From positions 1-10,428 of the IMG/VR virus record IMGVR_UViG_2541047776_000001: a stretch of 10,428 nucleotides of DNA. One strand, given 5' to 3'. The position numbers are program-made. Position 1 is the first letter of the stretch. Every line of letters begins with the position of its first letter. Of the stretch, positions 1 through 6,000 are shown piece by piece. The DNA is from a virus (Duplodnaviria; Heunggongvirae; Uroviricota; Caudoviricetes).

Positions 1-3000
1 CAGTCCGGGCGGTAAATGCGTGGGGGCAGCAGGGAGATCCGGCGTCGGTATCGTTCCGGATTGCCGCACCGGCAGCACCGTCGAGGATTGAGCTGACGCC
101 GGGCTATTTTCAGATAACCGCCACGCCGCATCTTGCCGTTTATGACCCGACGGTACAGTTTGAGTTCTGGTTCTCGGAAAAGCGGATTACCGATATCAGG
201 CAGGTTGAAACCACAGCCCGCTACCTTGGCACGGGGCTGTACTGGATAGCCGCCAGTATCAATATCAGGCCGGGCTATGATTATTATTTTTACGTTCGCA
301 GTGTGAACACCGTTGGCAAATCGGCATTCGTGGAGGCTGTTGGTCAGCCGAGTGATGATGCATCCGGCTATCTGGATTTTTTCAAAGGCGAGATAGGGAA
401 AACCCATCTGGCTCAGGAGCTGTGGACGCAGATTGATAACGGTCAGCTTGCGCCTGACCTGGCTGAAATCAGGACGTCCATTAAGGATGTCAGCAATGAA
501 ATCACGCAGACCGTCAATAAGAAACTGGAAGACCAGAGTGCGGCAATTCAGCAGATACAGAAGGTTCAGGTTGATACAAATAATAATCTGAACAGCATGT
601 GGGCTGTGAAGCTGCAGCAGATGCAGGACGGACGCCTTTATATTGCGGGTATCGGTGTCGGTATTGAGAACACCCCCGACGGCATGCAGAGTCAGGTGCT
701 GCTGGCGGCAGACAGGATTGCGATGATTAATCCTGCAAATGGCAACACAAAACCGATGTTTGTTGGTCAGGGTGATCAGATATTCATGAATGAAGTGTTC
801 CTGAAATATCTGACGGCTCCCACCATTACTAGCGGCGGTAATCCTCCTGCATTTTCCATGACACCGGACGGAAAGCTGACCGCTAAAAATGCAGATATCA
901 GTGGCAGTGTGAATGCGAACGCCGGGACGCTCAACAACGTTACGATAAATGAGAACTGTCAGATTAAAGGGAAACTGTCAGCCAACCAGATTGAAGGCGA
1001 TATTGTCAAAACAGTGGGTAAGGCTTTCCCGCGGGACTCCCGGGCACCGGAGCGGTGGCCATCAGGGACCATTACCGTCAGGATTTATGACGATCAGCCG
1101 TTTGACCGGCAGATTGTTATTCCGGCGGTGGCATTCAGCGGTGCTAAACATGAGAGAGAGCATACTGATATTTACTCCTCATGCCGCCTGATAGTGAAGA
1201 AAAATGGTGCTGAAATTTATAACCGTACCGCGCTGGATAATACGCTGATTTACAGTGGTGTTATTGATATGCCAGCTGGTCACGGCCACATGACGCTGGA
1301 GTTTTCGGTGTCAGCATGGCTGGTAAATGACTGGTATCCCACAGCAAGTATCAGCGATTTGCTGGTTGTGGTGATGAAGAAAGGTAAGCGTCGTCTCAGC
1401 ACCGTCTGGCAGATCCTGAAATTCCTGAGAGAATAGTGGACACCAAATATGGTGGACGCTATCCATGAAATCATTAACCGCAGTGCGTAAAAAAAGCCCT
1501 AATTATCCCGTTGAGTTCAAAATCAAAATGGTTGAACTCTCGCATCGACCAGAGATCTCCGTAGCGCAACTCGCTCGTGAGCATGGGATCAACGATAATT
1601 TGCTGTTCAAGTGGCGCCAGTACTGGCGCGAAGGAAAACTACGTCCTCCTTCAACAACAGAAAACAACGTGCCTGAGCTGCTCCCGATAACACTTGATGC
1701 CGAAGATGTTGTCCCTACAACCTCCCCCCGGTCACAACCTGTAGCTACTGCGACACCTGAATCACTCAATATCAGCTGTGAAGTGACGTTCCGGCACGGA
1801 TCACTCCGTCTGAATGGTGCCATCAGTGAAAATATCCTGAACCTGCTGATACGGGAGCTCAAACGTTGATCCCATTACCATCAGGGACAAAGATCTGGCT
1901 GGTCGCTGGCATCACCGATATGAGAAACGGCTTCAACGGCCTGGCGGCAAAGGTGCAGACGACGCTGAAAGACGATCCGATGTCAGGTCACGTTTTTATC
2001 TTCCGTGGGCGTAATGGCAGTCAGGTAAAGCTCCTCTGGTCTACCGGCGATGGACTGTGTCTGCTGACCAAACGGCTGGAGCGCGGCCGCTTCGCCTGGC
2101 CGTCAGCCCGGGATGGCAAAGTGTTCCTCACACCGGCACAGCTGGCGATGCTGCTGGAAGGTATCGACTGGCGGCAGCCTAAAAGACTGCTTACGTCCCT
2201 GACTATGTTGTAAGCCTCTTTATCCTGGTCGACGCTGAATGAGCCTGGTAATATACCCGGTATGAGCAGCTCACTTCCTGACGATATCAATGCACTGAAA
2301 CGTCTCCTTGCCGAACAGGAGGCGCTGAACCGTGCCCTGCAGGAAAAGCTGAACGAGCGTGAACGCGAAATAGACCATCTGCAGGCACAGCTGGATAAGC
2401 TGCGCCGGATGAACTTCGGCAGCCGCTCGGAAAAAGTCTCCCGTCGTATCGCACAGATGGAAGCTGACCTGAAGGCACTTCAGAAAGAAAGTGATACCCT
2501 TACCGGTCGGGTTGACGACCCGGCCGTGCAGCGCCCGCTGCGTCAAACCCGCACCCGCAAACCGTTCCCCGAATCACTCCCCCGCGATGAAAAACGGCTG
2601 CTGCCGGCAGCGTCATGCTGCCCGGAATGTGGAGGCTCGCTGAGCTATCTGGGTGAGGATGCCGCCGAACAGCTGGAGCTGATGCGCAGCGCCTTCCGGG
2701 TTATCCGGACTGTACGTGAAAAGCATGCCTGTACTCAGTGCGATGCCATCGTGCAGGCCCCCGCGCCTTCACGGCCCATCGAGCGGGGTATCGCAGGACC
2801 GGGGCTGCTGGCCCGCGTGCTGATCTCAAAGTATGCAGAGCACACCCCGCTGTACCGCCAGTCTGAAATGTACGGCCGCCAGGGCGTGGAGCTGAGTCGT
2901 TCACTGCTGTCGGGCTGGGTGGATGCATGCTGCCGGCTACTGTCACCGCTGGAAGAAGCGCTTCAGGACTATGTGCTGACTGACGGTAAGCTCCATGCTG

Positions 3001-6000
3001 ATGACACGCCTGTCCCGGTGCTGTTGCCAGGCAATAAGAAAACGAAGACCGGGCGGTTATGGACCTACGTTCGTGACGACCGTAACGCCGGGTCAACGCT
3101 GGCGCCGGCGGTGTGGTTCGCTTACAGCCCGGACAGAAAAGGCATCCATCCGCAGACCCATCTTGCGGGGTTCAGTGGTGTACTGCAGGCGGATGCATAC
3201 GCCGGGTTCAACGAGCTGTACCGGGATGGCCGGATAACGGAAGCCGCCTGTTGGGCTCACGCCCGCCGTAAAATCCACGATGTGCACGTTCGCACCCCGT
3301 CAGCCCTGACGGAGGAAGCGCTGAAACGGATCGGCGAACTGTACGCCATCGAGGCAGAGATAAGGGGAATGACGGCGGAGCAGCGCCTTGCCGAACGTCA
3401 GTTGAAAACGAAACCGCTGCTGAAATCCCTGGAAAGCTGGCTGCGTGAAAAGATGAAAACCCTGTCGCGACACTCAGAACTGGCGAAAGCGTTCGCATAC
3501 GCCCTGAACCAGTGGCCGGCGCTGACGTACTATGCAGATGATGGCTGGGCTGAGGCGGACAATAACATCGCTGAAAATGCGTTGCGGATGGTCAGTCTGG
3601 GCCGCAAAAACTACCTGTTCTTCGGTTCGGATCATGGAGGAGAGCGGGGAGCGCTGCTGTACAGCCTGATCGGGACGTGCAAACTGAACGGAGTGGAGCC
3701 AGAAAGCTACCTCCGCTATGTCCTTGACGTCATAGCCGACTGGCCGATAAACCGGGTCGGCGAACTGCTCCCCTGGCGCGTAGCACTGCCGACTGAATAA
3801 CACATCCCCGTCAATACGGTTCTTGCTGCACGCTTACGAAGAAAGCCACCGCAGGCATCAGTATCAGCTGAATTTTATAACCCATATACGGGCGCCAGAA
3901 ATGGCGCCTTTTTTATTGCAGAAAAGCGAGAGGTAATTATGCGTAAAGTTTGTGCAGCCATTTTGTCCGCAGCCATCTGTCTGGCCGTATCCGGTGCGCC
4001 TGCATGGGCGTCTGAGCAGCAGGCCACACTGAGCGCAGGGTATCTTCATGCCCGTACGAACGCTCCCGGCAGCGAAAATCTGAACGGGATTAACGTGAAA
4101 TACCGTTATGAGTTTACGGACACGCTGGGGCTGATTACGTCATTCAGTTATGCCAACGCTGAAGATGAGCAAAAAACGCATTACAGCGATACCCGCTGGC
4201 ATGAGGATTCCGTGCGTAATCGCTGGTTCAGCGTGATGGCGGGGCCGTCTGTGCGCGTGAATGAATGGTTCAGCGCGTATGCGATGGCGGGTATGGCTTA
4301 CAGCCGTGTGTCGACTTTCTCCGGGGATTATCTCCGCGTAACTGACAACAAGGGGAAAACGCACGACGTGCTGACCGGAAGTGATGACGGTCGCCACAGC
4401 AACACGTCTCTGGCGTGGGGAGCTGGCGTGCAGTTTAACCCGACCGAATCCGTGGCCATTGATATTGCTTATGAAGGCTCCGGCAGTGGCGACTGGCGCA
4501 CTGACGGTTTCATCGTGGGTGTCGGTTATAAGTTCTGATTAGCCAGGTAACACAGTGTTATGACAGCCCGCCGGTTCAGGCGGGCTTTTTTGTGGGGTGA
4601 ATATGGCAGTAAAGATTTCAGGTGTACTGAAAGACGGCACAGGAAAACCGGTACAGAACTGCACAATCCAGCTGAAAGCAAAACGTAACAGCACCACGGT
4701 GGTGGTGAACACGCTGGCCTCAGAAAATCCGGATGAAGCCGGGCGTTACAGCATGGACGTTGAGTACGGTCAGTACAGCGTTATTCTGTTGGTGGAAGGA
4801 TTCCCGCCGTCACATGCCGGGACCATCACCGTGTATGAAGATTCTCAACCCGGTACGCTGAATGATTTTCTCGGTGCCATGACGGAGGATGATGCCCGTC
4901 CGGAGGCACTGCGCCGTTTTGAGCTGATGGTGAATGAAGTGGCACGTCATGCCGGAGCGTCATCACAGAGTGCAGCGGCGGCAAAGAAATCCGAAACGGC
5001 AGCAGCCTCATCGAAGAATGCAGCGAAAACCTCAGAAACGAATGCAGCTAACAGCGCACAGGCGGCAGCGGCCTCGCAGACTGCATCGGCAAACTCCGCG
5101 ACAGCAGCCAAAAAATCAGAAACCAGCGCGAAAAATAGCGAGACAGCCACAAAGGCCAGCGAAAAAAACGCAAAATCCAGCCAGACGGCAGCGAAAACCA
5201 GTGAGACGAATGCCAAAGACAGTGAAGCCAACGCAAAGGTGAGCGAAACAGCGGCGGCGAACTCGGCGAAAGCATCGGCAGCAAGCCAGACGGCAGCAAA
5301 AGCAAGTGAAGATGCTGCCAGAGAATACGCAAACCAGACAGCAGAGCCGTACAGATATGTTTTACAGCCGCTGCCGGATGTGTGGATACCCTTTAATGAT
5401 TCGCTGGATATGATTACGGGCTATTCTCCGGGTTATAAAAAAGTGAAGATTGGTGATAATGTGGTTCAGGTTGCCAGTGATAAACAGGTTAATTTCAGTC
5501 GCGCATCAACGGCAACATATATCAACAAATCTGGCGAACTGAAAACGGCGGAAATTAATGAGCCACGATTTGAAAAAGAAGGTTTATTGATTGAAGGTCA
5601 GCGAACCAACTACATGTTGAATTCAGCAACTCCAGCTTCTTGGGGTAAATCTGCAAATATGAATGTCGCTGAGGTTGGAACTGATAGTTTTGGTTTTACT
5701 TATGGAAAGTTTGTTTGTAATGAATCATTAATTGGGCAAAGTACAACCCTTAATATGGCAGTAGTTTCAACCTCGGGGGCTGTCGATGTATCAGGCGATA
5801 ATAAGTGTGTGACGACATCGTGCAGATTTAAAACGGATTTGGAACTCCTGTTAAGGATCAGGTTTGAAGCCTTCGATGGCAGCGCTTCATCTAATCTTGG
5901 ATATGCCATTGTTAATACGCGGTCTTTATTGGTTGAAATCACCGGTGTAGCTGCCGACAGGCTCACCGCACGAGTTAACAAAGATGAAGCTACGGGCTGG

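Follow-up and report, generated by a model that had tools for sequence, protein, structure and literature searches.

The window studied here, i.e. the whole stretch of 10,428 nucleotides that makes up positions 1 to 10,428 of the IMG/VR virus record IMGVR_UViG_2541047776_000001 (Caudoviricetes), contains a complete insertion sequence (IS) of 2454 bp. We are almost certain that it results from the transposition of a full-length, apparently functional ISEc22, a member of the IS66 family, into the 3' end of J, the tail-tip and host-specificity gene of a lambda-like prophage lying beside ompT, envY and nfrA.

The limits of the element were obtained by reading the window from 1200 to 4100, with a check by script: the left end, GTAAGCGT, starts at 1384 and the right end, ACGCTTAC, finishes at 3837. 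The terminal inverted repeats are identical at their tips (8 positions out of 8) and agree at 17 of 26 positions overall; because only the 8-bp tips are exact, a generic repeat finder did not list them. Inside the element, the list of open reading frames (ORFs) shows three uninterrupted frames running in the same direction, 1465-1869, 1866-2213 and 2262-3800. The components of the element are as follows.

1384-3837, + strand: the whole of the insertion sequence ISEc22 (IS66 family), with 100% identity to E. coli copies along all 2454 bp.
1384-1409, + strand: left terminal inverted repeat, GTAAGCGT..., from the script comparison with the right end.
1465-1869, + strand: tnpA, IS66 accessory protein with a helix-turn-helix, 134 amino acids (aa); Pfam HTH_Tnp_1 and NCBIfam IS66_ISRel24_TnpA.
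1866-2213, + strand: tnpB, IS66 Orf2 accessory protein, 115 aa; Pfam TnpB_IS66 and NCBIfam IS66_TnpB.
2262-3800, + strand: tnpC, IS66 DDE transposase, 512 aa; Pfam IS66 domains and NCBIfam transpos_IS66.
3812-3837, - strand: right terminal inverted repeat, ...ACGCTTAC, from the script comparison with the left end.

The coordinates of tnpA are those of the coding sequence (CDS) called by the Prokaryotic Genome Annotation Pipeline (PGAP) in the identical copy present at one of the other loci described below (L003). The tnpB gene starts with TTG at 1866 and overlaps by 4 bp with tnpA, the stop codon of which is at 1867-1869. The TnpC translation has no stops; it contains a NNIAENALR motif and a stretch of 23 residues, which may represent the DDE/CwAHxRR signature reportedly described for the IS66 family by Gourbeyre et al. 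(2010).

The three products score above the cut-offs of IS66-related profile models. That of tnpA reaches 45.5 bits with Pfam HTH_Tnp_1 (cut-off 24.1) and 82.7 bits with NCBIfam IS66_ISRel24_TnpA (cut-off 74); another NCBIfam TnpA model, NF038385, scores under its cut-off on the same product. The product of tnpB matches Pfam TnpB_IS66 (131 bits for a cut-off of 26.6, E-value 1.6e-38) and NCBIfam IS66_TnpB (119.9 bits, cut-off 50). For tnpC, the matches are to the Pfam domains LZ_Tnp_IS66 and zf-IS66, which stand for the leucine zipper and zinc finger at the N-terminus, DDE_Tnp_IS66 (the catalytic domain, E-value 5.2e-107) and DDE_Tnp_IS66_C, and to NCBIfam transpos_IS66 with 467.8 bits (cut-off 180). 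When the 2454 bp were compared by megablast with our E. coli set, which consists of 5426 complete genomes, full-length copies were found in 2192 genomes, and 1072 records had an identity of at least 99%. Among the matches listed, 25 out of 25 are 100% identical over the full 2454 bp, on chromosomes and on plasmids and in unrelated contexts; all 25 bear the RefSeq label 'IS66-like element ISEc22 family transposase', accompanied by tnpA and tnpB. In the phage collection, copies 99.6% identical to the element sit in Stx2a prophages. ISEc22 appears in a published table as a member of the IS66 family with a length of 2454 bp (PMC5001619). Judging by the RefSeq/PGAP labels and the matching length, the element is ISEc22, a catalogued member of the family.

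On both sides the element abuts the same octamer, GAAGAAAG.

1376-1383, unstranded: left copy of the 8-bp target-site duplication GAAGAAAG, from the sequence; single copy in E. coli 94EC.
3838-3845, unstranded: right copy of the target-site duplication GAAGAAAG, from the sequence; single copy in 94EC.

The chance of finding an 8-bp identity at two fixed positions is about 1.5e-5. No contiguous match to the whole window exists in the 5426 genomes, and three strains, 94EC, AHS8C65RI and VTB96775v, match it at 100.0% over 76%, in two pieces that span 7966 bp. This is exactly the length left when the IS and one copy of the repeat are taken out of the window, so that AHS8C65RI and VTB96775v have, by coverage and span, an empty site as well. 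In 94EC the empty site was read directly: when positions 6001-13966 (locus L002) were compared base by base with window 1-1383 joined to window 3846-10428, 7964 of the 7966 positions were identical, there was no IS, and GAAGAAAG was present once, the sequence being ...GTGATGAAGAAAGCCACCGCAGGC... or, in its longer context, ...GTGGTGATGAAGAAAGCCACCGCAGGCATCAGTATCAGCTGA.... The sole base differences between the flanks and 94EC over these 7966 bp are at window positions 830 and 7524. Many genomes likewise match a 319-bp reconstruction of the empty site at 100% identity, and in 3274 genomes the coverage is at least 80%. The 8-bp repeat does stem from duplication of the target site.

There are only two further occurrences of this purine-rich octamer in the 10.4-kb window, and one could imagine that its two copies around the element are native to J and no footprint of transposition. 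This idea, which has practically no chance of being right, is refuted because 94EC and the 319-bp empty site carry a single copy. Two other strains with equal coverage and span also go against it, as do five other ISEc22-type insertions at which the boundaries of the element are reproduced, each with its own, different, perfect 8-bp duplication. A transposition event was what an earlier note, made from the window sequence, had proposed: an IS66-family element with both termini and three uninterrupted tnp ORFs, set between exact copies of GAAGAAAG that would be a target duplication. The profile models, the 100% identity to copies annotated as ISEc22 and the coordinates of ends, frames and repeats all agree with it; the empty site that it predicted, ...GTGATGAAGAAAGCCACCGCAGGC... 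with a single GAAGAAAG, is the one read in 94EC, a related prophage without the IS.

Another way to account for the junctions would be an artefact, i.e. the misplacement of a repeated IS in a draft assembly. ISEc22 is multicopy in many strains, and the exact junction was not found in the other sequences searched. A misjoin, however, would not yield a precise 8-bp duplication at the exact termini of the IS, nor would it leave flanks collinear with an empty-site genome at 7964 positions out of 7966; we regard it as very improbable. From what is established for DDE insertion sequences and for the IS66 family, the genuine transposition that we favour would have proceeded through joining, by the TnpC DDE transposase aided by TnpA and TnpB, of both IS ends to target strands cut with a stagger of 8 bp; repair of the gaps after strand joining would then have duplicated GAAGAAAG.

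The insertion point is in the last codons of J. The segments concerned, and the features that follow them, are listed here.

1-1383, + strand: 3' part of J, prophage tail-tip and host-specificity gene, from Pfam and PDB matches and from the gpJ annotation in 94EC.
1384-1436, + strand: new J C-terminus encoded by the IS, 17 residues followed by TAG, from translation.
3846-3871, + strand: displaced end of J, made of the rest of the Ala codon, T-A-G-I-S-I-S and a TGA stop, from the empty-site reconstruction and translation.
3890-3909, + strand: terminator-like hairpin with a T-run after J.
3939-4538, + strand: lom (Ail/Lom outer-membrane protein), first gene downstream; Pfam Ail_Lom, E-value 2.9e-125.

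The J segment runs off the start of the window and its native coding sequence continues up to the insertion point. Its product contains the Pfam domains Phage_Tail_Tip and Ig_GpJ_C, and can be aligned with lambda J (8iyk, 8xcj) and A8 gpJ (9wca) right up to their ends, with E-values from 1e-111 to 1e-134; the corresponding gene of 94EC, the empty-site genome, is annotated gpJ. The C-terminal Ig-like domain of lambda J is the receptor-binding domain (PMC11101478). By these matches, what the IS has hit is the receptor-binding domain at the C-terminus of a lambda-type J protein, in keeping with the receptor-recognition gene named in the earlier note. The insertion breaks a GCC codon (Ala), which is number eight among the sense codons of J when counted back from its end. 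These eight codons and the stop are severed from the gene, and the distance of nine codons before the stop that had first been given is right if the stop is counted. The native ending, ATAGISIS (8 residues), is swapped for the 17 IS-encoded residues, with a stop at 1434-1436 in the left end of the IS.

The lost residues belong to a conserved tail: the pattern KK-x-x-x-G-I-S is common to lambda J (...IKKQALGISV) and A8 gpJ (...KKSTAGISIS), and six other prophage J alleles have an identical or nearly identical C-terminal tail. With this part of the receptor-binding domain changed, J probably folds or adsorbs less well. A J protein with its C-terminal domain altered in this manner would probably leave the prophage without fully infectious particles. 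The insertion also places 2462 bp (the IS and one repeat copy) between J and the downstream genes, lom and the side-tail-fibre gene (stf, 4597-6663), so that J is now parted from the 3890-3909 hairpin, lom and stf. A polar effect of the IS on lom and stf is possible. A scan of 1300-4000 for an outward promoter directed from the IS to lom gave no sigma-70-like sites and was uninformative.

The event looks recent and confined to one strain lineage. The exact left-junction 32-mer has no match in the GTDB representative genomes, IMG/VR or the JGI metagenomes. In a BLAST of both junctions against the complete E. coli genomes, none of the matches listed covered either junction in one piece; those listed with full coverage are made up of two pieces, which come from other ISEc22 insertions close to the end of J. 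It is because the duplication has no mutations, many copies match the element at 100%, the flanks are 99.97% identical to the empty-site strain 94EC and the junction was found nowhere else searched that we consider the insertion recent and strain-specific; its recency had already been suggested in the earlier note. Intact ORFs, intact ends and the existence of identical copies elsewhere indicate that this copy is probably still competent for transposition. Decayed copies do exist, as exemplified by a 1-bp deletion in tnpA in one of the other insertions (L006), and the element of the window could in principle be an inactive relic. That not a single base distinguishes it from copies on chromosomes and plasmids in many unrelated contexts, and that its three ORFs are open, its two ends present and its duplication unmutated, makes a relic improbable, and a mobile copy remains our interpretation.

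Several points weigh against this account of a functional ISEc22 that has probably impaired J. The name derives from the RefSeq/PGAP labels and the matching length. The effect of the C-terminal swap on the function of J is inferred from conservation only, and the capacity of the window copy to transpose is deduced from its sequence and from the existence of identical copies. Lastly, polarity on lom and stf may be small under Q-mediated antitermination of the late genes.

Insertions of ISEc22 type near J are not limited to the window. Five further sites were characterized in other E. coli prophages that have a J allele of the same type as the window.

O26:H11 strain 11368 (L001), 4164-6617: co-oriented with J, duplication GAAAAGCG.
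EC21Z-014 (L003), 5001-7454: co-oriented with J, duplication GTTTGTTG.
UTME-9 (L004), 2087-4540: co-oriented with J, duplication GATTAAGG.
E2865 (L005), 2087-4540: co-oriented with J, duplication TATTTACT.
O103 strain RM8385 (L006), about 2104-4556 on the reverse strand of the locus: co-oriented with J, duplication GATTTTTT.

The five copies are 99.6-100% identical to the window element and four of them are 2454 bp long. The copy of O103 RM8385 has 2453 bp because of the 1-bp deletion mentioned above, which is at element position 341, in tnpA. This copy also has ten substitutions, and PGAP annotates in it a shortened 'transposase'; it is a decaying copy, as opposed to the intact one of the window. 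Expressed as window-equivalent positions, the six independent sites are at about 378, 758, 963, 1168 and 1376, and at 57 bp beyond the J stop, i.e. all within the last 1.05 kb or so of J or 57 bp after its stop, and all co-oriented with J. Relative to the site in the window, the other insertions in J are about 1 kb, 620 bp, 415 bp and 210 bp upstream, the remaining one being that located 57 bp after the stop. The latter is the O26:H11 copy, the duplication of which (GAAAAGCG, window-equivalent 3914-3921) falls, around 4140-4170 of L001, just past the hairpin and 19 bp before the start of lom.

This distribution raises the question of whether, in lambdoid prophages, ISEc22 is drawn to the 3' part of J, or to AT-rich octamers within it, and takes the orientation of J. 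The existence of six independent co-oriented sites, within the 3' part of J or shortly beyond it (those of the window and of the five loci listed), speaks for a preference. So does the comparison of two queries, since a chimeric one designed for opposite-oriented copies in the last 540 bp or so before the J end found none, and the co-oriented one found 83 genomes, and so does the composition of the six duplicated octamers, with about 31% G+C on average versus 51% for the J segment. On the other hand, three of the six sites came from queries able to join only co-oriented pieces near the end of J; a single genome can contain as many as 14 J-type genes and 29 copies of ISEc22; and prophage genes are neutral landing sites. 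In two other prophages, moreover, ISEc22 is found in tail genes that neighbour J, a tail assembly chaperone gene (L007) and a gene annotated 'C40 family peptidase' (L008), in the opposite orientation. Since the ascertainment by these queries is biased and the L007 and L008 copies are opposite to the tail operon, we do not claim a preference for J: it appears unlikely, and a real ISEc22 hot spot in this gene is doubtful. Were it true, such a preference would repeatedly disable or remodel the host-recognition genes of prophages.

The surroundings of the insertion are those of a prophage end. In 94EC the prophage adjoins ompT, envY, ybcH and nfrA, which is where DLP12 is located in K-12. Downstream of the side-tail-fibre gene, two small ORFs on the + strand (6660-6938 and 6948-7241) correspond to phrog_1361 and phrog_1443, both of unknown function, and sit where a tail-fibre assembly chaperone is expected; the reverse ORF that overlaps them (6465-7112, 215 aa) has no family match and is probably spurious. 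Further on, a class I S-adenosylmethionine-dependent methyltransferase gene (7434-8099, reverse strand) lies between two fragments of tail-fibre-assembly genes (7260-8470), one of which, 8159-8464, matches only the C-terminal part of Caudo_TAP. The 7260-8470 region has the appearance of a prophage end that was rearranged, or else of a moron insertion, and it resembles ybcY/tfaX of DLP12. At the edge of the prophage, 8648-10132 (- strand) codes for an alpha/beta hydrolase of 494 aa with an Abhydrolase_1 domain and a TAP-like C-terminus (PHROG 20134, unknown function); in 94EC the gene of this 494-aa hydrolase is directly before ompT.

To conclude, a known element has behaved here in a known way, and the event is real but ordinary: IS insertions in prophage tail genes are commonplace, and this is one more case of their accumulation there. 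Beyond annotation, where J should be described as disrupted at its extreme C-terminus by a recent and strain-specific ISEc22, its import is small. The insertion can serve to mark the strain, and it allows the prediction that the prophage is probably adsorption-defective.

With respect to known systems, the family descriptions associated with IS679 and IS66 (Han et al. 2001, J Bacteriol 183:4296; Gourbeyre et al. 2010, Res Microbiol 161:136) reportedly include a tnpA-tnpB-tnpC layout with overlapping tnpA and tnpB, a DDE transposase as TnpC, imperfect terminal repeats starting with GTAAGCG, and an 8-bp target duplication. Imperfect repeats with this start are present in the window (GTAAGCGT at both tips), and so is the 8-bp duplication, as an exact GAAGAAAG on each side for one copy in the empty site. 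By its structure, its ends and its duplication, the element is a textbook IS66-family member. The IS679 and IS66 prototypes differ from it in host and in sequence. In the phage collection its next relative is ISEc8, the IS66-family element of E. coli O157:H7 and of Stx phages, which has the same three-ORF organization and is also hosted by lambdoid (Stx) prophages; the nucleotide identity is about 85% over 85% of the element, and the first 370 bp or so do not align at the megablast level. When it is set against ISEc22 itself, the three-gene layout, the ends, the 8-bp duplication and the length are the same and the window element shows no difference; only the insertion site, at GAAGAAAG, eight codons before the stop of J, was seen nowhere else.

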